Source: Polyangiales bacterium (GTDB lineage Bacteria; Myxococcota_A; Polyangia; Polyangiales; Ga0077539). Taken from it: 45,726 nucleotides of DNA. Below are positions 1 through 9,445 of the stretch, in pieces; the first letter of the stretch is position 1, and every line of letters starts with the position of its first letter. A model generated the notes under the pieces. That model was not told the origin of the DNA. It did not search any database and was given only the letters and a program-made list of their open reading frames with translations. Location of the stretch: assembly GCA_046351555.1 (NCBI GenBank), contig JAXLYI010000029.1, forward strand, positions 1 through 45,726, read 5' to 3'. Both the position numbers and the translations under genes were made by a program.

Positions 1-811
1 CGAAGCTGTGGCGGAGCGTGTGGCAGCTCGCGCGCTTCGCGATGCGGGCGGCCTTCACCGCGTCGCAGACGGCCTTCTGCATCGCGCTCTCGTGCAGGTG
101 GTGGAGCGCGAGGCGATCGGTCGCCGGGTCGACGCACGGGCGCGACGCGGGGAAGACGTACTGCCACGCGAGGCTGGTGGCGGCGCCGGGCATCTTCGCG
201 CGCAGGGCGTAGGGCAGGTCGACCTCGCCGCGTCCGGCGGCGAGCTCGGCTTCGTGACGTCGGGCGACGACGTCGAGCTGGGCGCGGAGGGCTTCGCTGG
301 CGCGGTTCGGCAGGAGCGCGGGGCGGTCGCGCTCGCCCTTCGCCCGGCGAACGGTGATCTGGCGGCGGTCGAAATCGACGTCCTTCACGCGCAGGGAGAC
401 GGCTTCGAGGAGGCGCAGGCCCGCGCCGTAGAGCAGCTCGCCGAGGAGGCGGAAGGGCGGGTCGAGGTGATCGAGCAGGGCCGTCACCTCCTGGCGCGAG
501 AGCACCGCGGGGAGGTGCGCGGGGCGGCGGGCGCGTTCGAGGCCGTCGAGCGCCGGCACGTCGAGTTCGAGCACCCTGCGGTAGAGGAACACCAGCGCGC
601 AGAGCGCCTGGTTCTGCGTCGAGGCCGAGGTGCGGCGGCGGACGGCGAGGTCGTTGAGGAACGCGGTGATCTCGGGGGCGCCGAGGTCGCGCGGGTGACG
701 GCGGCCGTGGAAGGCGATGAAGGCGCGGGTCCACTGGACGTACGCCTCCTCCGTGCGCGCGGCGTAGTGCAGGCGGCGGAGGGTGGTGCGGAGGGCTTCG
801 ATCAGCGTCAT
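1..811 (-). CDS. intI: Integron integrase IntI, 5' portion. The start codon is the complement of 809-811; the C-terminus lies beyond the window start.
   Basis: The reverse-strand translation reads MTLIEALRTTLRRLHYAARTEEAYVQWTRAFIAFHGRRHPRDLGAPEITAFLNDLAVRRRTSASTQNQALCALVFLYRRVLELDVP...LLYGAGLRLLEAVSLRVKDVDFDRRQITVRRAKGERDRPALLPNR...GEVDLPYALRAKMPGAATSLAWQYVFPASRPCVDPATDRLALHHLHESAMQ...CHTLRHSF. It is collinear with IntI1, including the integron-specific extra domain (ALPxAL...WxWxxVFP) that Xer recombinases lack, and box II HxxR is present. The six-frame track only shows the antisense shadow ORF 8..1066(+). Confidence 0.93.
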   Translation of the reverse strand, partial: MTLIEALRTTLRRLHYAARTEEAYVQWTRAFIAFHGRRHPRDLGAPEITAFLNDLAVRRRTSASTQNQALCALVFLYRRVLELDVPALDGLERARRPAHLPAVLSRQEVTALLDHLDPPFRLLGELLYGAGLRLLEAVSLRVKDVDFDRRQITVRRAKGERDRPALLPNRASEALRAQLDVVARRHEAELAAGRGEVDLPYALRAKMPGAATSLAWQYVFPASRPCVDPATDRLALHHLHESAMQKAVCDAVKAARIAKRASCHTLRHSF

Positions 812-953: not shown

Positions 954-1040
954 CCGGCGGCCTAACACGCGGGTTACCGGGTTATCGCGCCGGAGCCGGC
1001 GGCCTAACAGGCGTGTTACGGGAATACCGACGGGTTAGGC
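954..1040 (+). other. attI recombination site with two IntI-binding direct repeats and the R core GTTAGGC
   Basis: The direct repeats are CCGGCGGCCTAACAcGCGgGTTACcGGG (about 954-982) and CCGGCGGCCTAACAgGCGtGTTACgGG (about 996-1023). Each contains the inverted core GCCTAAC (960-966 and 1002-1008). The core GTTAGGC lies at 1034-1040, with a second GTTRRRY (GTTAGAC) at 1054-1060. The site sits between divergent intI and the cassette genes, as in class 1 to 3 integrons. Confidence 0.75.
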
Positions 1041-1120
1041 AGTCGAAGATGATGTTAGACAGGTGAACTAGATGACAAACTTGCGAGGCGTCGCGGACGT
1101 CGGAAGGGTGTCGACTCGGA

Positions 1121-2038
1121 ATGACTACAATCGCACAGCAATTCCGGAACTTTAAACAACGTCTCGGCAATGTGAACGCCCACATCTGCATGGTGGATGC
1201 TGTTGTCGCGAATGCCCTCGAAAGTGCACAAGATACGGATACTCCAGAACGGTATCTGGAAGAACTAGCAAAGAAGCAGCAGCACTATCTTGGCTTCAAA
1301 CAAATCCCAGAGTTGCGCAAGCCGCTGGGTTCTTTCGGCATTGTGTTCCAACATCAGGTGCTCGAAGGCTTTTTGCAGGACCTCGAAGAGTATCTACGGG
1401 GGAAACCTTCGTACAATGCTATGGATCCCAATGGCACTGATCCTCGCCCGAAGGGGGAGGACATGCTGCGGCGCTTGGTCCGAAAGCTAGTTCTCCTGGC
1501 CAACAAGCAAGAGCTACCATTAAGTTACAAAGACGAGAACGAGCGAGATGCAGCGCTGCGCGAGGAGATCTTTTGTAGTACCGTCGGCAACGTCGAGACT
1601 CACCTGATGGAATACTATCGATTGGTTCGGAATGCCGCGGTGCATGCTGATATCGATCGAATCGCCGAGAATTATTACAAAGCCCACTTTGCGAGTATGC
1701 AGTCAACGCGCAATCAAACCGAATCGACACTTGAGCAAGGAGAGCCTCAGCGATTCACGCCGGAGAAGTTGACTCGTCTCTACAAGGCTAAGCCTTCAAG
1801 TGTCAATGCCATTTCAATTGAAGATATGATCCTGTATTCGCGGGTCATGCAGAAAGTCACACGGGCACTTCTGGTGATGGCACGTCCCGACATCGAGACC
1901 GAGATACTTCCCGTTCTGAGGAAATCGTTTTCCCGCTTTGAGAGTGAAGAACGTCGCAGGAAGGCTATCGTTGGAGCGTTGTGCACAGACTATCTGCTTG
2001 ACGCAAATGTGGCAAAGGAATATGCTTCTCGTGGCTGA
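1121..2038 (+). CDS. Cassette-encoded hypothetical protein with a HEPN-like Rx4H motif; putative RNase or abortive-infection-type effector
   Basis: This is a 305-aa ORF with an ATG start and low GC. The motif ...ETHLMEYYRLVRNAAVHADIDR... carries R-N-x3-H, which is the canonical HEPN Rx4-6H active-site signature with a polar residue after R. I recognise no other family. Confidence 0.6.
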   Translation: MTTIAQQFRNFKQRLGNVNAHICMVDAVVANALESAQDTDTPERYLEELAKKQQHYLGFKQIPELRKPLGSFGIVFQHQVLEGFLQDLEEYLRGKPSYNAMDPNGTDPRPKGEDMLRRLVRKLVLLANKQELPLSYKDENERDAALREEIFCSTVGNVETHLMEYYRLVRNAAVHADIDRIAENYYKAHFASMQSTRNQTESTLEQGEPQRFTPEKLTRLYKAKPSSVNAISIEDMILYSRVMQKVTRALLVMARPDIETEILPVLRKSFSRFESEERRRKAIVGALCTDYLLDANVAKEYASRG

Positions 2039-2133
2039 CTAGCTTAGCGGTAGAGCGCTTTCGTCTCAAGCCCATCTCCATCGGCGGTGGGTTTGAGAGG
2101 AAAGAGGCAGTGGTTCGACTCCTCTGTCAGCCG
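2033..2133 (+). ncRNA. tRNA-like element: class-I tRNA scaffold with anticodon loop GUCUCA (CUC, Glu-type), discriminator G and a 30-nt insertion between positions 37 and 38
   Basis: The acceptor stem is a perfect 7 bp, GGCUGAC (2033-2039) with GUCAGCC (2126-2132). U8 and A9 are present. The D-arm is GCUU/AGCGGUA/GAGC with A14 and GG. The anticodon stem is CUUUC (2058-2062) with GAAAG (2100-2104), and the loop begins G-U33-C-U-C-A37. Positions 2069-2098 are then inserted and pair back onto the anticodon (UCUCAAGCCC with GGGUUUGAGA). The variable loop is AGGC. The T-arm is AGUGG/UUCGACU/CCUCU with G53-C61 and T54-psi-C-R-A58. No CCA is encoded. The element overlaps the ORF1 stop codon (TGA 2036-2038). 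Confidence 0.5.
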
Positions 2134-2172
2134 ATCATCTGTGAATTGCGTTTTGCAACACCGTTTGGGTAC

Positions 2173-2263
2173 GTCTAACAAGCCGATGGTGCCGACCGCC
2201 CCCTCCTCACTCACCCGCTACCCACCTGCCCCGCTGCGGCGGCACATCGGCAGGCCGTTGGGC
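2173..2263 (+). repeat. attC site of cassette 1 (91 bp; R'' GTCTAAC ... R' GTTGGGC)
   Basis: The site is GTCTAAC-aagccgatgGtgccgACcgcc-[32-nt variable centre]-gctgcggcggcacatcggcaggcc-GTTGGGC. The flanking arms are imperfect inverted repeats with unpaired G and AC, the extrahelical bases typical of attC. R'' fits RYYYAAC and R' fits GTTRRRY. The conserved arms reappear at 4933-5023. Confidence 0.72.
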
Positions 2264-2323
2264 AGCTTCGGAGTACGACGCTGCGAATGAGCAGCAGAAC
2301 CTTACAGAAAAGGCTAGGCCCAC

Positions 2324-3721
2324 GTGAAGACTGACGTAAGCAGCCAACTTGTCGTAAACATAGATCGCAAACGGTACACCGCACTTTCAGGTCTGTGGAA
2401 GAGCCCATATGCCTCTGTTATGTCAGAGGAAATAGATTGGTATTCGAATACTGACGAGTCGATCTTAGCCGTTGTGCTGCACGACTATACAGATAACGAT
2501 TACGCGGCTGTTGTGTCGATGCGCGATCTGAGCGGACGATTCAGGGCCGTTGATGTACAAGTTTCCTTCGTTACGGTTGCCGCCGCTGTCGAGTGGCTTA
2601 CAAGTACGATTTGCTCACGGTCGGAGTCCGGCGAAAAACACCATCGACAGGGGGACGAGGTGCCGTCGCTCAATCTTTTCGATCCAGTAGTCCCGCAAGA
2701 GCGACTGCATCCAGGTTTCGTGCACCTCGCCAACGACCTCGCATTTTTGCCGGGGCGATCAATCATTCGAGAATTGATGCCTCATTATCATGACATCGAC
2801 GGGAACTTTGTCAGTCAGTTCCAATCAAGCGGGTTTGACGCGAGAACATGGGAACTGTATCTGTTCACCTACTTCAAAGAGGAGGAGTTATTCCTCGATC
2901 GAACTCATCGCTCCCCGGACTTTATTGTCAGCAAGTTTGATCGCAGCGTTGCCGTTGAGGCCGTTATTGTAGGCCGCCAGCTTGACAACCCACCGAAACG
3001 AGGAATTGTTAAGGCTCCCAAGTCTGCAACTGAAATTCAAGAACTGCAAAAAGATCTCATGCCAATCCGATTTGGCAGTCCACTGAACTCGAAGCTTCGA
3101 AAGAAATATTGGAGATCTCCGCATGTTCGTGGTTTGCCGCTCATCTTTGCGATAGCTGACTTCCATGATGATCAGTCTATGCTGTGGTCGTCGACAGCGC
3201 TGGGTAATTACCTTTATGGTTACCGTCATGAGCATTATTATGACGAATCTGGAACACTTGTCGTCAAACCAATCAAAATCAATTCGCACAAATTCGGCGA
3301 CAAAAAGATTCCCTCTGGTTTTTTCTTCTTGCCTGGTGCGGAGAACGTCAGCGCGGTGCTTTTCTCTGCTTCCGGGACGATTTCAAAGTTTAATCGGCTC
3401 GGACGCCAAGCGGGTTTTGCTCACCCTGGAGTGAGAATGTTTCGCAGAGGAACTCTGCACGATCACGACCCGAACGCTTCAGTGCCGCACATCTTCAGTT
3501 ACGAAGTGGATGAAACGAGTGAGGAAACGTGGGGTGAGGGGCTTTCGATGTTTCATAACCCGAAAGCTAAGTTTCCAGTCCCGCGGGAGCTTTTTCCGAG
3601 CATCGCCCATCACTATTTCGAAGATGGCCACATCAGAAGTGTTCTGCCGGAGATCTTTGTATATTCGTCGACCACGATTCACATGATTGCTCGCGACGAC
3701 GGAGGGGAGGAAAATGCATAG
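2324..3721 (+). CDS. Cassette-encoded hypothetical protein (465 aa) with a possible PD-x(n)-E nuclease-like patch
   Basis: The ORF starts at a GTG and has low GC with no good RBS. The segment ...WELYLFTYFKEEELFLDRTHRSPDFIVSKFDRSVAVEAVIVG... resembles the E ... PD ... (D/E)x(K) core of restriction-endonuclease-fold enzymes, but the K is not evident. I recognise no other family. Confidence 0.55.
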   Translation: MKTDVSSQLVVNIDRKRYTALSGLWKSPYASVMSEEIDWYSNTDESILAVVLHDYTDNDYAAVVSMRDLSGRFRAVDVQVSFVTVAAAVEWLTSTICSRSESGEKHHRQGDEVPSLNLFDPVVPQERLHPGFVHLANDLAFLPGRSIIRELMPHYHDIDGNFVSQFQSSGFDARTWELYLFTYFKEEELFLDRTHRSPDFIVSKFDRSVAVEAVIVGRQLDNPPKRGIVKAPKSATEIQELQKDLMPIRFGSPLNSKLRKKYWRSPHVRGLPLIFAIADFHDDQSMLWSSTALGNYLYGYRHEHYYDESGTLVVKPIKINSHKFGDKKIPSGFFFLPGAENVSAVLFSASGTISKFNRLGRQAGFAHPGVRMFRRGTLHDHDPNASVPHIFSYEVDETSEETWGEGLSMFHNPKAKFPVPRELFPSIAHHYFEDGHIRSVLPEIFVYSSTTIHMIARDDGGEENA

Positions 3722-3783
3722 ACAGAGCGCTGCCGTCGGCGAAATTGATTTTCTTGATTCGCTGTTTGTGCTAGCTTTGCTGC

Positions 3784-3876
3784 GTGACCTAGCTGAATGT
3801 GCCTAACTCAGTTCAGCTTGGCGCCGCAGCAATGTGTGATGCGTTAGATCTGATCCGCACATGAATGCTAGGTCAC
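3784..3876. repeat. 93-bp imperfect palindrome in the ORF2-ORF3 intergenic region with embedded integron core-like motifs
   Basis: GTGACCTAGC (3784-3793) is the exact reverse complement of GCTAGGTCAC (3867-3876). The inner arms share ATGTGC/GCACAT. The centre is GGCGCC. GCCTAAC lies at 3801-3807 and GTTAGAT at 3843-3849. Confidence 0.5.
3801..3849 (+). repeat. Possible short or degenerate attC-like site (R'' GCCTAAC ... R' GTTAGAT)
   Basis: GCCTAAC fits RYYYAAC and GTTAGAT fits GTTRRRY. GCCTAAC also pairs almost perfectly with G+TTGGGC, which is the R' this cassette would carry when circular. However, the site is only 49 bp, its internal L arms are not complementary, and it is unlike the uniform 91-bp attC family. 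Confidence 0.3.
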
Positions 3877-3944
3877 ACTACCCCCTTCTTACATCACCGC
3901 CCCAACCGCCGCTCTCTAGCCGCGAAGCTTGAGTCAGGAGCACT

Positions 3945-4904
3945 GTGACTACCAAGCGACAAGAGGCTGTCGGTCTCAACCACGTTTCGCGTATTGTTCA
4001 AGTTTCGTGGTCAAGCGGATGGCAGGGAATTGACCCGCAGAACGATGACGCAGTTGATGGGGTCGTGTTCTTTCGTCAGCGAGATCGCGACACCGGGCAA
4101 ATTGCGTTTGTGCAGGTGAAGTCAGGACCGAGTTACTATCGCGAATGGAAGACGTCGCCTGATGTAGTTGGTGTGCAACTGGGCGAAGACTATATCAACA
4201 AACATCGTCCCCGCTGGAACTCACTGCCAGGGCCTGTTGTTTTGGTCTATGTTCTCGAGAGAGAAAAGAAGAAACCACTGTCATGGTGGGCGGATCTTCG
4301 ATGCGAGGAGTCGTACTCGCTCACGAACAAGCAGGTTGTCTTGCTTCAGAGGCACAACACGTTTGGTCCTCACTCGAAGGGGCATATCCGGCGACTAGCT
4401 AAAGCCGTTACGCTAGATTTGCCGACTATTGTCGCGCGGCGTCGAGATATCAACCTGAGTCCCCTTGGACACCAGTTCAAGTCCGCAATTCGGCAGGCTT
4501 ATGTTGATTGGGGGCATGCTGTAAATGCGGAGCGCGCTCACCCTACACTCGGAGTTGTGGAGGTATCGCGTGTTGGATGGCGCCACATAACTCGGCTTGG
4601 CCGCCGTCCAGAGCGTATTATTCATAGCTTGCATCTGCTTGGAATAGCTCGCCAGATGATCGTCCACGGGGGAAGCGTCAGTCCCATCGGACGAGCAAAG
4701 AGCCAGACGAGAGCGAACGGAGCACACGAGGTGCTGGACTACCTCGCACTTCGAGCCAATGTCGTATTTCCTCATCGAGGTCCGGCAATTGTGCAGGTCG
4801 TATTGCGCCGCAAGCGGATGATAGGCAAAAACGGAACGACGTCGCAACGATTGTGGTTTTACTCTGTGTACGAGTTGGGCCGTTCAACGCATAGATCGGC
4901 CTAA
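3945..4904 (+). CDS. Cassette-encoded protein with an N-terminal Mrr/Cap4-like PD-(D/E)xK nuclease domain (DUF4365/DUF4297-like) and an unknown C-terminal half
   Basis: The ORF starts at GTG 3945, preceded by AGGAG (3936-3940) at 4-nt spacing. The N-terminus ...GWQGIDPQNDDAVDGVVFFRQRDRDTGQIAFVQVKSG... has the D-x(n)-(Q/E)xK arrangement of the Mrr/Cap4 restriction-endonuclease fold. The protein is 319 aa and GC is about 52%. Confidence 0.6.
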   Translation: MTTKRQEAVGLNHVSRIVQVSWSSGWQGIDPQNDDAVDGVVFFRQRDRDTGQIAFVQVKSGPSYYREWKTSPDVVGVQLGEDYINKHRPRWNSLPGPVVLVYVLEREKKKPLSWWADLRCEESYSLTNKQVVLLQRHNTFGPHSKGHIRRLAKAVTLDLPTIVARRRDINLSPLGHQFKSAIRQAYVDWGHAVNAERAHPTLGVVEVSRVGWRHITRLGRRPERIIHSLHLLGIARQMIVHGGSVSPIGRAKSQTRANGAHEVLDYLALRANVVFPHRGPAIVQVVLRRKRMIGKNGTTSQRLWFYSVYELGRSTHRSA

Positions 4905-4932
4905 GGAAGGCTCAGGGTATCTTGACGCAACT

Positions 4933-5023
4933 GCCCAACAAGCCGATGGTGGCGACCGCCCCCACTGCTGCCGTCGAACAAGCACCTGGCCTACTGCGGC
5001 GCCACATCGGCCAGCCGTTCGAC
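4933..5023 (+). repeat. attC site (91 bp; R'' GCCCAAC ... GTTCGAC) closing the low-GC cassette block
   Basis: The site is GCCCAAC-aagccgatggtgGcgaccgcc-[variable centre]-tgcggcgCcacatcggcCagcc-GTTCGAC. Its arms are nearly identical to attC1 (2173-2263) and it has the same 91-bp length. The centre is variable, as in attC families of chromosomal integrons. Confidence 0.7.
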
Positions 5024-5037
5024 GAAGACATGACCCG

Positions 5038-5565
5038 ATGATCGACTCGCAGCAGGTCGCCCTCGAGGCGGCAACGCCGCGCGATGCCGCGCTGCTCTCG
5101 AACCTCCTGGAGCTGTACGCCTACGACCTCAGCGAGACCTTCGCGTTGGAGCTGGGGGCCGACGGGCGCTTCGGCTACGACAAGCTGCCGCTCTACTGGT
5201 CGGAGCCCGAGCGGCGGTTCCCCTTCCTCATTCGCTGGGGCGCTCGGGTCGTCGGCTTCGCCCTGGTCACGCGCGGCTCGCCGGCGTCGGACGATCCCGA
5301 CGACTTCGATGTCGCCGAGTTCTTCGTCGTTCGTCGGCACCGCCGCTCCGGTGTGGGCCGACGGGCGGCCTTCCTGCTCTGGGATCGCTTTGGCGTGCGT
5401 TGGGTCGTCCGCGTCTCCGAAGGGAACCGCGGCGGCCGCGCCTTCTGGGCGAGCGCCACCTCCGAGTACGCGGGCGGCGCGGTGGTCGAGACCACGCGTC
5501 CCGGCGGCCTGCACGCATGGCGCGTGTTCTCGTTCGACAGTCGCACTCGGAAGGTGGCCGTCTGA
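5038..5565 (+). CDS. GNAT-family N-acetyltransferase
   Basis: The 175-aa protein reads MIDSQQVALEAATPRDAALLSNLLELYAYDLSE...FPFLIRWGARVVGFALV...VAEFFVVRRHRRSGVGRRAAFLLWDRFGV, which carries the acetyl-CoA binding R/Q-x-x-G-x-G/A pattern. GC is high and host-like. It starts 15 bp after the last attC. Confidence 0.75.
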   Translation: MIDSQQVALEAATPRDAALLSNLLELYAYDLSETFALELGADGRFGYDKLPLYWSEPERRFPFLIRWGARVVGFALVTRGSPASDDPDDFDVAEFFVVRRHRRSGVGRRAAFLLWDRFGVRWVVRVSEGNRGGRAFWASATSEYAGGAVVETTRPGGLHAWRVFSFDSRTRKVAV

Positions 5566-6820: not shown

Positions 6821-9445
6821 TCAGTGGAGCGCGGGCGGCGCGGCGCTGTCGCGCGGCGGGAGCGAGTGGCGCGCCGGCGGGTGCTCGCGCACGTAGCGAG
6901 TGGCCTTCTCCACGTCGAGCGGCGGCGCGATGGCGTAGCCCTGCGCCACGTCGCACCCGAGCGCGCGGAGCGTCATGAGCTGCGCGTCGTCCTCGACCCC
7001 CTCGGCCACCACGGTGAGCCGCAGCGCGCGGGCGAGCTCGATGATCGAGCGGACGAGCGCCGCGGCGGAGCGGTCGCCGGTGCGGAGGCCGTCGGTGAGC
7101 CCGCGGTCGATCTTCACCTCCTCGGCGGGGAACTGCCGGAGGTACGCGATGGAGGCGTTGCCCGCGCCGTAGTCGTCGATGGAGACGTGGACGCCGAGGG
7201 CGCGGATGCGCGCGAGGAGGCGGGCGCCGCGGTCGGGGTCGGTCATCACGGCCGTCTCGGTGAGCTCGACGACGAGGCGCGAGGGCGCGATGTTGTGCGC
7301 GCGGAGCATCGCGGCGACGTCGTCGACGAAGCCCGCCTCGTGGAGCTGCCGCGGCGAGACGTTGACCGCCATGCGGAGGCGCGAGGGGCCGTGGAGATCA
7401 TCCCAGCGGGCGAGCTGCGCGAGGGCGTGGTCGAGCACCCAGGCGCCGATGGGGACGATCTGCCCGGTCTCCTCGGCGAGCGGGATGAAGCGGCCGGGGG
7501 GGATGGCGCGGCCGTCGGGGCGGTTCCACCGGGCGAGGGCCTCGACGCCGACGAGGGCGCCGTCGGCGACGCGCACCTTGGGCTGGTACGCCAGCGAGAA
7601 CTCCCCGCGCGCGATCGCCTCGTCGATCTCCGCGCGGAGCTCGACCTTCCCGCGGATCGCGTCGCCCATCGCGCTCTCGAAGCGCACCGCGCGGCCGCGG
7701 CCCTGGCGCTTGGCCTCGTAGAGCGCGATGTCCGCGTCGCGCAGCGCGTCGTCGGCCGCGTCGCCCGGCAGCGCCCGCCGCACCCCGACGCTCGCCCCGA
7801 GCGTGAACGACATCGCGTGGACCGCCACCGGCTCGCGCAGCGCCTCCACCACCGCCTCGGCCACGCGCTCGCCCTCGCCCTCGCCGCGCGCCTCCACCAC
7901 CGCGACGAACTCGTCGCCCCCGAGGCGGCCGATCCAGCGGTCGTCGCGCTCGCCGAGGACGGCCTCCATGCGCCGGGCGACGGTGGCGAGCACCGCGTCG
8001 CCCGCGGCGTGGCCGAAGGAGTCGTTGACCTCCTTGAAGCCGTCGAGGTCGATGAGGAGCACCGCGAGGGCTCTCCCCTCGGCGAGCCACGCCGCGAGCC
8101 GCGCGCGGAGCGTGGCGCGGTTGGGCAGGCCCGTGAGCGGGTCGACCGTGGCGAGGCGGTGGAGGGCGTCGACGTCGTGCGCGTTGAGCACCAGGCCCGC
8201 GACGTCGGGGTCGTCGCAGAGGTCGGTGACGCGGAGGTGGAAGTGCCGCAGCGCGCCGTCGACGCGGAGGCGGAGGTCGACCTCGGCGCGGTGGTCGGCG
8301 GACGACTGGGCGGCGGCGAAGGCGCGGCGGAGCTCGGCGAGGTCCGCAGGGTGGCAGGCCCGTTCGAAGCCGTCGGCGCTGACGGCGAGGCCGAGGCGCG
8401 AGGCGGTGGCGGGGGCCATTTCGACGACGGTTCCTTCGGGGAGGACGATGGCGACGACGTCGAGGGCGCCGGCGGACATCGTGCCGAGCGTGCGGGCGTG
8501 GGAGAGGGCGGCGTCGCGGACGAGCGACACGCAGCGGGCGCCGAAGAGCAGGGTGAGGGCCGCGCTCGACGCCATGCTCACGTGCGGGTCGAGGGCGCCG
8601 AGGAAGCCCGCCACGCCGGGCGCCGCGGTGGCGAGGGCGAGCAGGGCGACGCGGGCCCCGTTGCTCCGCCGGGGCATGAGGTTGAGCCGGACGAGGTCGC
8701 CCATCGACGGGTGCCACACCGACACGGCCACCGAGGCGCACGCGACGATGAGCGTCGCGGCGGTGAGCGCGTCGGGCCCGCGCTGCGCGAGGCGCCCGGA
8801 GAGCGTCCCGAGGTCGGAGACGAAGGAGAAGGTGGCGAACGAGAGGAGCGCGTAGAGCGACACGGGGCGCCGGCGCGCCATGGTGACGAGGGAGAGGGTG
8901 ACGGTGAAGGTCACGAGGTCGCCGGTGGGGTACACCAGCAGCGCGAGGCGGACGTCGACGGGGAGGGCGCGCGCCACGCGGTCGAACACGACGGCCCAGA
9001 CGAGCGCGGCCCCCGCGACGCCGACGATGAGCGCGTCGATGAGGACGAAGCGCGCGAAGCGGCGGTTGTTGACGCGCCCGAACGTGAGGATGGAGTCGAC
9101 CGCCATCACGTAGGCGAGCGCGAAGGCGACGTCACCGAGGCCGACGTCGCGCCCGCCGATGGTGTTGCCGCTCTGGCGGAAGAAGCACGCGAGCCCCGCG
9201 ACGCTGAGCCCGAGCGCGACGAGGTAGCGCGAGAGGGCCGGGCGGAGCGGCGGGGCGCGGCGCCAGGCGACCGCCACGGCCACGGCGCTCCCCACGAAGC
9301 ACGCGGTGATGAGCGGGTCGCGGGCCGACTCGGCGAAGTACGCCGTGAGGGACATCGCGCCGGCCGCCCACGCGAACACGCGCCACGCTCGCGCACGCGG
9401 CGCGGCGCCCGCCTCCGGGGGCGCGTCGGGCGGTCGGCTCGGCAC
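6821..9445 (-). CDS. Membrane-anchored GGDEF-EAL protein (diguanylate cyclase/phosphodiesterase)
   Basis: The 874-aa protein has an N-terminal multi-TM region and a GGDEF domain (RLGGDEFVAV). Its EAL domain shows ELTE, DDYGAG and EGVED motifs. Confidence 0.9.
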   Translation of the reverse strand: MPSRPPDAPPEAGAAPRARAWRVFAWAAGAMSLTAYFAESARDPLITACFVGSAVAVAVAWRRAPPLRPALSRYLVALGLSVAGLACFFRQSGNTIGGRDVGLGDVAFALAYVMAVDSILTFGRVNNRRFARFVLIDALIVGVAGAALVWAVVFDRVARALPVDVRLALLVYPTGDLVTFTVTLSLVTMARRRPVSLYALLSFATFSFVSDLGTLSGRLAQRGPDALTAATLIVACASVAVSVWHPSMGDLVRLNLMPRRSNGARVALLALATAAPGVAGFLGALDPHVSMASSAALTLLFGARCVSLVRDAALSHARTLGTMSAGALDVVAIVLPEGTVVEMAPATASRLGLAVSADGFERACHPADLAELRRAFAAAQSSADHRAEVDLRLRVDGALRHFHLRVTDLCDDPDVAGLVLNAHDVDALHRLATVDPLTGLPNRATLRARLAAWLAEGRALAVLLIDLDGFKEVNDSFGHAAGDAVLATVARRMEAVLGERDDRWIGRLGGDEFVAVVEARGEGEGERVAEAVVEALREPVAVHAMSFTLGASVGVRRALPGDAADDALRDADIALYEAKRQGRGRAVRFESAMGDAIRGKVELRAEIDEAIARGEFSLAYQPKVRVADGALVGVEALARWNRPDGRAIPPGRFIPLAEETGQIVPIGAWVLDHALAQLARWDDLHGPSRLRMAVNVSPRQLHEAGFVDDVAAMLRAHNIAPSRLVVELTETAVMTDPDRGARLLARIRALGVHVSIDDYGAGNASIAYLRQFPAEEVKIDRGLTDGLRTGDRSAAALVRSIIELARALRLTVVAEGVEDDAQLMTLRALGCDVAQGYAIAPPLDVEKATRYVREHPPARHSLPPRDSAAPPALH

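Follow-up and report, generated by a model that had tools for sequence, protein, structure and literature searches.

A tRNA-shaped RNA gene linked to a HEPN-like protein gene in an integron cassette, a candidate RNA-controlled defence module

The closest described counterpart of the locus considered here is AbiF(Cd)/RCd22 of Clostridioides difficile phi027. AbiF(Cd) is a 34-kDa HEPN toxin with the motif RNQCAH; it is neutralised by RCd22, a structured non-coding RNA of ~100 nucleotides (nt) that has its own promoter and binds AbiF(Cd), and mutation of the HEPN R and H residues weakens this binding (PMC12373285). The locus in question lies in a 45,726-nt stretch of DNA from a Polyangiales bacterium (GCA_046351555.1, contig JAXLYI010000029.1, forward strand; hereafter the window), where the first cassette of an integron carries ORF1, an open reading frame (ORF) for a HEPN-like protein, and a gene for a tRNA-shaped RNA. 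The two resemble AbiF(Cd) and RCd22 in the association of a HEPN protein of ~300 amino acids bearing an RN...H motif with a structured RNA of ~100 nt, in the RNA's own promoter of sigma-70/SigA type, in residence on a mobile element and in the proposed abortive-infection logic, binding and neutralisation being shown for RCd22 only. They differ in arrangement and in the nature of the RNA: RCd22 lies upstream of abiF, comprises two repeated hairpin motifs and a terminator and is not tRNA-like, whereas the RNA in the window lies downstream, is single-copy and tRNA-shaped, and overlaps the ORF stop codon. Neither Abi_2 (Pfam) on ORF1 nor the abiF RNA motif RF03085 in the window gave a match, which places ORF1 outside AbiF/AbiD.

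In classical type III systems (ToxIN, AbiQ/antiQ, CptIN, TenpIN), an endoribonuclease toxin is bound directly and neutralised by an adjacent cognate RNA, a pattern that may extend to ORF1 and its RNA by analogy. These systems are found on plasmids and in defence contexts, as is the ORF1/RNA family; however, their toxins have the ToxN/AbiQ fold rather than the HEPN fold, and their RNAs are upstream tandem repeats of 34-50 nt that the toxin cuts. HepS is a solo HEPN anticodon nuclease acting in defence (PMC13043305), and nucleases of this type make tRNA a common HEPN target in that setting. PrrC, RloC and HepS differ from the present pair in that their activity is kept in check either by a protein (EcoprrI, or protein J of the phage tail tip) or by auto-inhibition, with no dedicated tRNA-like partner RNA. 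In the HEPN/MNT type VII systems (SO_3166/SO_3165; Aphanizomenon HEPN/MNT), the antitoxin is instead a nucleotidyltransferase protein that AMPylates the toxin, and no MNT gene was found in the cassette or in the homologous loci. On the RNA side, the tRNA-like domain of transfer-messenger RNA (tmRNA) and the YrlA Y RNAs (Rsr/Ro) are likewise non-decoding acceptor/T-arm mimics with a dedicated protein partner, but their tRNA-like module is built otherwise and lacks a normal anticodon arm, and their partners are SmpB and Ro60 rather than HEPN proteins. An Rfam scan of the window yielded no tmRNA or Y RNA match.

Anatomy of the tRNA-shaped RNA

Four features of the window make up the protein-RNA module:

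1121-2038, forward strand: ORF1, 305 amino acids, HEPN-like protein of an unannotated family and putative RNase/toxin, with the motif R170-N-A-A-V-H175
1998-2026, forward strand: sigma-70-type promoter inside the last codons of ORF1, with -35 TTGACG at 1998-2003, a 17-nt spacer and -10 TATGCT at 2021-2026
2033-2133, forward strand: tRNA-shaped non-coding RNA gene, 101 nt, with intact acceptor, D and T arms and an anticodon arm lengthened to ~20 bp
2065-2099, forward strand: extension hairpin, U33...A, 35 nt, flanked by a G32.G 1x1 mismatch (from the helix table of seven RNAs)

The RNA gene matched the Rfam tRNA covariance model RF00005 from end to end (model positions 1-71) with 44.9 bits (E = 1.8e-6), above the gathering score of 29 bits; homologous RNAs scored 33-53 bits, and the element thus belongs to the tRNA structural class. 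Its extra length relative to RF00005 is confined to one 37-nt loop between the strands of the anticodon stem. As read from the sequence, the acceptor stem comprises 7 bp (GGCUGAC/GUCAGCC) and is accompanied by a discriminator G and U8. The D-arm (GCUU-AGCGGUA-GAGC, stem GCUU/GAGC) carries A14 and GG and is followed by G26, and the anticodon stem CUUUC/GAAAG opens into G32-U33-C-U-C-A37. The variable loop has 4 nt (AGGC), and the T-arm has the loop UUCGACU, G53-C61 and one U.U mismatch in its stem. An earlier reading of the window from sequence alone (the original prediction) had described a tRNA-Glu(CUC)-like gene with these acceptor, discriminator, U8, D-arm, anticodon-stem, variable-loop and T-arm features and a 30-nt insertion in the anticodon loop. 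The cloverleaf holds, both feature by feature and in the tRNA-like score given by RF00005, and our confidence in this anatomy is high.

The 30 nt that follow A37 (2069-2098) pair back onto U33-A37 and further, UCUCAAGCCC pairing with GGGUUUGAGA, just as the original prediction had proposed for the anticodon. The minimum free energy (MFE) structure is a cloverleaf with one long hairpin at -54.6 kcal/mol (z = -5.9), and none of 200 dinucleotide shuffles folded as well. A covariance model built for the family (R1) scored 110.8 bits at 2033-2133, its sole match in the window.

Comparison with homologous RNAs established the nature of the insert. Between the 5-bp anticodon stem and the extension lies an invariant G.G 1x1 mismatch; the proximal part of the extension, UCUCAAGCC / GGYUUGAGA, is conserved in sequence (CGUCU-AAGC nearly invariant), while the distal helix and the apical loop vary. 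An RNAalifold consensus of six RNAs recovered the acceptor, D, anticodon, extension and T helices, with compensatory changes at 13 of 35 pairs. The longer hairpin of L010 was misplaced by MAFFT, and the extension helix was tabulated by hand as well as by covariance-model alignment. In the hand table of the seven core RNAs the extension forms 12 contiguous pairs, with double-sided changes at helix positions 4, 8, 9, 10 and 11; position 4, which corresponds to "anticodon" nucleotide 36, is C-G, A-U or U-A. When 11 family-linked RNAs were aligned to the covariance model, 93.2% of cells were paired as compared to 71.8% after shuffling (0 of 500 shuffles reached the native value) and 41-52% in a slid-partner control, percentages to be read with the caveat that the alignment was fitted to the model behind them; 26 of 35 pairs in these RNAs show a double-sided change. 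The 30-nt insert makes up one side of a helix that covaries and spans at least 12 bp, and the homologous loci, on which the predicted stems could have foundered, show covariation in those stems. In distant subfamilies the middle domain takes another form, with loops of 9-16 nt and two hairpins, one of them a 37-nt helix resembling a variable arm, and the RNA has an encoded CCA.

Linkage to a HEPN-like protein family and a promoter within the ORF

The four-helix up-and-down HEPN fold was found for ORF1, as was the Rx4-6H motif of HEPN proteins, here R170-N-A-A-V-H175, which does not vary in alignments A2, A4 and A5. Of 154 relatives, 149 have RNxxxH, and the longer YYRxxRNxxxH is almost universal in the wider family; the invariance of RNxxxH suggests that ORF1 is a metal-independent endoribonuclease. 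No curated HEPN family was matched, and ORF1 had no Pfam match at E <= 1, the only Pfam trace being a faint match to Ribonuc_2-5A (E 0.08) in the relative P0007. PADLOC v2 returned nothing for ORF1 or for five other family members, and there was no meaningful NCBIfam match for ORF1. Structure comparison of ORF1 with the PDB by Foldseek gave nothing significant, and a profile search of PDB sequences gave only spurious helical repeats. Close relatives are scarce, a handful among 5.8 billion proteins, to which a second, word-indexed protein search added P0019 alone; an exhaustive hidden Markov model (HMM) search recovered 193 representative clusters (50% identity), only five of them below 1e-30. 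No match was obtained by tblastn of ORF1 against plasmids and phages, and distant family members were used as queries instead.

A tRNA-like gene lies at or overlaps the 3' end of the family ORF in 15 of the 17 loci examined, a linkage in which our confidence is high. It holds at protein identities of 24-63% and in sequences from metagenomes, from plasmids of cyanobacteria and Bacteroidota and from an Escherichia coli plasmid. All seven core loci (36-100% protein identity) have the RNA at or overlapping the ORF end. At the loci of the close relatives the RNAs have a loop of 35-42 nt, start anywhere from 52 nt ahead of the ORF end to 10 nt past it, and score against RF00005 as follows: L001, 38.5 bits; L003, 49.4; L004, 38.6; L005, 39.4; L006 and L007, 50.5; and L010, 39.4. 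Among distant RNA-bearing members at 24-30% identity, L015 scored 53.2 bits and L013 40.9 bits, and further distant loci with an RNA are L012 (partial, at a contig end), L089, L061, L137, L138 and L136. Among these distant members, the RNA on Acaryochloris pREB4 scored 46.9 bits and that on a Bernardetia plasmid 33.2 bits. The Prokaryotic Genome Annotation Pipeline (PGAP) lists a 127-nt "tRNA-OTHER" on E. coli plasmid p1_LBHALD (NZ_CP129241.1; L136, 40472-42869), where it overlaps the family ORF by 15 nt.

The overlap of the two genes takes several forms. The stop codon of the ORF falls within the acceptor stem at the window locus and at L001 and L003, and within the D-arm in L012, L013, L015, L136, L137 and L138. 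In L004 (985-1089) and L005 (1035-1137), the reading frame passes through the first half of the RNA gene and terminates at a UAA located in the extension's apical loop. The ORFs of L006 and L010 end 7-10 nt ahead of the RNA. Family proteins accordingly carry the RNA in their C termini: 29 of 154 end in "LA" and 5 of 154 in "LAQR", which are translations of the D-arm (CUAGCU-UAG, or CUAGCUCAGAGG-UAG). The ~16 additional C-terminal residues of the L004 and L005 proteins (...LDSLAGRALPSQASIL) are encoded wholly by RNA-constrained sequence.

The promoter lies within the last codons of ORF1, and the end of its -10 element precedes G2033 by 6 nt in the promoter scan. All seven core loci have TTGAC[A/G] (TTGCAC in L006), exactly 17 nt, and then TATGCT, TACGCT or TATGTT; five of them have 6-7 nt between the promoter and nucleotide 1 of the RNA, and two have 12-15 nt. 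The hexamer columns are identical in 7 of 7 loci at most positions as compared to 3-4 of 7 for spacer columns, and the conserved residues L-[LV]-D...Y-A are always encoded as NTT-GAC...TAT-GCT. The subfamily that comprises L013 and the E. coli locus has TTGCAA-17-TAGACT, 16 nt upstream of the RNA. Transcription is predicted to start at or near nucleotide 1, and because the promoter is conserved at the DNA level within coding sequence, the RNA is very probably an independent primary transcript, besides its presence on read-through ORF mRNA. The RNA is a conserved partner of ORF1 and not independent cargo. The original prediction had asked whether the element would recur beside ORF1 homologues, as it does, and had called it unusual cargo for a cassette; unusual it is, but it is tied to the HEPN-like ORF, has its own promoter and occurs with its partner outside integrons as well.

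Homologues adjoin genes for type I restriction-modification, a Bub/ThiF/ubiquitin-like system, Cas3 and DUF4062 proteins. On the L136 plasmid, an AbiJ-like "abortive infection family protein" is encoded ~640 nt downstream of the family ORF and "tRNA-OTHER", on the same strand, and the module is near a DUF1778/GNAT toxin-antitoxin pair; plasmids related to this one comprise 51 records, mainly from clinical Enterobacter hormaechei. At the P0007 locus (L010/L011, 1050-1910), a DUF4062 protein is encoded two genes upstream. To go by the title of a 2026 preprint, DUF4062 is reportedly an anti-phage family, "Evangelion", and its presence near P0007 is consistent with a defence-island setting.

Candidate roles of the module

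Cassette 1 would be a self-contained two-component module, formed by the HEPN-fold protein ORF1 and the tRNA-shaped RNA, and the role that we propose is that of a type III-like toxin/RNA-antitoxin abortive-infection system in which a tRNA-mimic RNA keeps a HEPN RNase from acting. This proposal draws on analogy with the systems described above, and we regard the chances for and against it as evenly matched. RNase activity, toxicity, binding of RNA to protein and the direction of regulation are properties that we infer for the pair. The promoter in the last codons of ORF1 would drive a separate and probably abundant transcript from about nucleotide 1. By keeping the acceptor/T minihelix, U8, A14, G18G19, G15-C48 and the T-loop, the RNA could adopt the L-shape and engage tRNA-end-processing enzymes, while the long closed helix in place of the anticodon loop would leave it unable to decode. 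It may then bind the HEPN protein as an uncleavable tRNA mimic, or pseudo-substrate, and keep it inactive. Phage infection would halt host transcription, degrade or displace the RNA, or bring a trigger, upon which the freed RNase would cut cellular RNAs, plausibly tRNA anticodon loops, and abort the infection.

Several observations weigh against this proposal. Here the RNA gene follows the protein gene and is present once, whereas classical type III antitoxins (ToxI, RCd22) are upstream and repeated, and no tandem RNA repeats were found at the window locus, which lacks the repeated, upstream arrangement of type III loci. Neither a terminator nor an encoded CCA was found after the RNA in the window. 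The middle domain is unlike between subfamilies, one long hairpin in some and two hairpins in others. The RNA is also missing at two bona fide members of the protein family, on Methylobacterium pMRAD03 (L139) and on a Rhizobium plasmid (L140), which match the family HMM at E = 1e-49 and 1e-44 and have divergent or extended C termini; they represent either copies in decay or a subfamily able to function without the RNA.

Of other roles for the RNA, one as sensor or cofactor appears unlikely to us, and it would take either of two forms: a bait or licensing factor that, once altered by phage tRNA-acting enzymes (anticodon nucleases, repair ligases or kinases, modification enzymes) or by phage-induced cleavage or loss of CCA, activates a HEPN effector, or the scaffold of an active ribonucleoprotein. 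Linkage, promoter and context agree with such a role as well as with an antitoxin. The intact tRNA core exceeds what simple protein binding needs, suggesting that tRNA-handling enzymes recognise the RNA, and the proximal helix CGUCUCAAGCC is invariant though base-paired, as for specific recognition or a cleavage site. However, if the RNA did not restrain it, the HEPN RNase of a single-ORF cassette would have to be kept inactive by other means, and the presumed sensing surface, namely the middle domain, is wholly different between subfamilies. Quite improbable in our estimate is a cis-acting 3' element, a processing or stability signal at which cleavage by RNase P or RNase Z sets the 3' end of the mRNA and leaves a non-stop message, and tmRNA tagging of its product throttles the amount of ORF1 protein. 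Such a role would suit the position of the ORF stop within the RNA at most loci and the fact that read-through transcripts from the ORF promoter necessarily include the RNA. The overlap is not obligatory, however, as illustrated by L006 and L010, and a dedicated, conserved promoter with its predicted +1 at nucleotide 1 of the RNA points to an independent transcript acting in trans.

The original prediction had also allowed for a tRNA-Glu(CUC) that needs splicing, with its intron at the canonical position 37/38, and such a decoding tRNA could be matured by, for example, HEPN cuts (leaving 2',3'-cyclic phosphate/5'-OH) and RtcB ligation. HEPN RNases leave the end chemistry used in tRNA splicing, which suits this scheme, and ARAGORN called tRNA-Glu(CUC) once 2069-2098 was deleted. 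In default mode ARAGORN detected no tRNA, either in the window or at any of the homologous loci, owing to the tool's loop-length limits and not to absence of the element; with introns allowed, it read the native sequence as tRNA-Leu(GAG) and placed a 30-nt intron at position 32. Both strands of the hairpin serve equally well as "anticodon", which makes the choice of isotype arbitrary. The insertion does follow A37, as predicted, but its status as an intron is disfavoured, position 32 being an equally good placement, and a loop spliced at 37/38 would have G32 and G38. Intron-containing pre-tRNAs of archaea and eukaryotes similarly have an insertion after nucleotide 37 that pairs with the anticodon, and the same search pattern recovered many archaeal examples. 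The RNA in the window differs from them in its bacterial host, its covarying structural helix, its unconserved anticodon and the lack of a bulge-helix-bulge motif (3-nt bulge, 4-bp helix, 3-nt bulge): the helix in both the MFE and the consensus structures is continuous save for the 1x1 G.G. Among the core RNAs the nominal anticodon reads CUC, CUA or CUU with compensatory partners while the acceptor stems are almost identical, and the discriminator base is G, A or U among homologues. In place of the 7-nt loop and conserved one-isotype anticodon of a decoding tRNA, there is a closed hairpin of 35-40 nt, and the 9-16-nt loops and second, 37-nt hairpin of the distant subfamilies are not reducible to a 7-nt anticodon loop. 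A group I intron would be expected to exceed ~200 nt as compared to the 30 nt of the insert, and Rfam gave no match to one in the window. The variable nucleotide 36, the missing bulge-helix-bulge and the arbitrary isotypes thus make a spliced, decoding tRNA most improbable, and it is the other reading offered by the original prediction, a non-decoding tRNA mimic with an extended anticodon arm, that helix covariation, the variable nucleotide 36 and the near-constant acceptor stems support. Still less can be said for a degenerate or pseudo-tRNA remnant, such as an integration-site scar, lying beside ORF1 by chance. Integration often targets tRNA genes, tRNA fragments are frequent at the borders of islands, and PGAP calls one homologue "tRNA-OTHER"; but linkage to one protein family in 15 unrelated contexts, compensatory evolution in every helix, the ORF overlap, the conserved promoter and a position inside the cassette, between ORF and attC rather than at an island border, effectively refute a remnant. 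Two further candidates were rejected: a guide role like that of CRISPR RNA, since the variable part of the RNA is fully base-paired, and an origin from attC or an integration scar, given the position inside the cassette and the linkage to the ORF outside integrons.

A wider proposal, which we offer as speculative and do not expect to hold in full, is that of a widespread and undescribed immune module: a tRNA-mimic decoy in control of a HEPN RNase, read by the tRNA-processing machinery and perhaps by phage factors that target or repair tRNAs, would report on the integrity of the tRNA pool or on its manipulation by phage and couple this to abortive infection, with the dual-coded promoter and the overlap forming a compact autoregulatory unit that moves as one cassette. 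The literature searched, mostly outside subscription journals, gave no account of a tRNA-like RNA associated with HEPN proteins, antitoxin function, defence islands or integron cassettes, and a prior description elsewhere is possible. If the antitoxin mechanism applies, for which the case stands near the midpoint, the module would join the RNA-controlled HEPN toxins with a categorically unusual RNA component. A complete tRNA mimic would then be a new type of RNA antitoxin or regulator in the small group of HEPN nucleases under RNA control, to which AbiF/RCd22 and, at a greater distance, Cas13 belong. The mechanism would account for one class of RefSeq "tRNA-OTHER" entries that now seem annotation noise, and it would give a function to a family comprising 193 or more clusters (50% identity) for which Pfam, NCBIfam and PADLOC have no model. 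Members of this family occur in environmental integrons and also on the conjugative plasmids of Enterobacter, Klebsiella and E. coli from clinical sources. An integron cassette can evidently hold a protein gene together with a separately promoted, overlapping RNA gene, and the natural copy on E. coli plasmid p1_LBHALD makes the module directly testable.

Further long-arm RNAs and the integron setting

The core RNA type is rare, as pattern scans for it yielded no match in viral contigs and only two in species-representative genomes, both by chance (no match to the tRNA model, and one inside a nitroreductase-like ORF). Metagenomes scanned with a looser D-arm/T-loop pattern gave at least 120 matches, mostly archaeal intron-containing tRNAs and tandem tRNAs, and among the matches listed only L061 and L089 are family-linked. 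Others are bacterial-looking long-hairpin tRNA-like genes next to which a HEPN-family ORF was not detected, namely L127, L122, L118/L133, L094, L026, L057/L117, L063/L125 and L024, and the same holds for an identical group from human gut (L025/L046/L074/L079/L095/L112/L116). Such long-arm genes stand in tandem in L063 (two) and in L025 (three). In L118 and L133 a 164-amino-acid ORF stops 4 nt ahead of the RNA, and in L024 a 270-amino-acid ORF stops 2 nt ahead. These matches suggest a broader population of "long-arm" tRNA-like RNAs with other partner proteins, of which we know no description.

The cassette that holds ORF1 and the RNA is bounded by the following integron features, in keeping with the integron-cassette context given in the original prediction:

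1-811, reverse strand: intI integron integrase, with an IntI-typical translation (MTLIEALRTTLRRLHYAARTEEAYVQW...HTLRHSF), running off the window start; context, outside the module
1035-1041, forward strand: attI crossover core GTTAGGC and start of cassette 1, read from the sequence
2174-2263, forward strand: attC of cassette 1, with R'' GTCTAAC at 2174-2180 and R' GTTGGGC at 2257-2263, read from the sequence; closes the ORF1 and RNA cassette

A second attC of the same type lies at 4932-5023 by repeat analysis. With an adjoining intI, attI/attC and attC bounds and the canonical orientation, the region has the makings of integron gene cassettes, and cassette 1 (~1036-2257) contains ORF1 and the RNA and nothing else. 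Between intI and the attI core are two 35-nt direct repeats (953-987 and 995-1029; 83% identical, 42-nt spacing), which, judged by position, are possibly the IntI-binding sites of attI.

Cassette 2, between the two attC sites, has ORFs at 2324-3721 and 3945-4904. ORF2 of this cassette is a PD-T7-1 defence protein (PADLOC E = 1e-181), and the other ORF is a DUF4365 protein with a weak match to an Argonaute-associated restriction-endonuclease-like model. No attC-type repeat was found between them, and for this reason the two may form a two-gene defence cassette. The G+C content is ~52% across ~1000-5000 of the window as compared to ~75% for the Polyangiales metagenome-assembled genome, and the integron region sits within a horizontally acquired island. 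Directly past the last attC, the G+C content is back to ~75%. An ORF for a GNAT-type acetyltransferase (weak Pfam match) follows at 5038-5565, and a large ORF for a GGDEF/EAL-like membrane protein at 6821-9445 (reverse strand); both presumably belong to the host chromosome.

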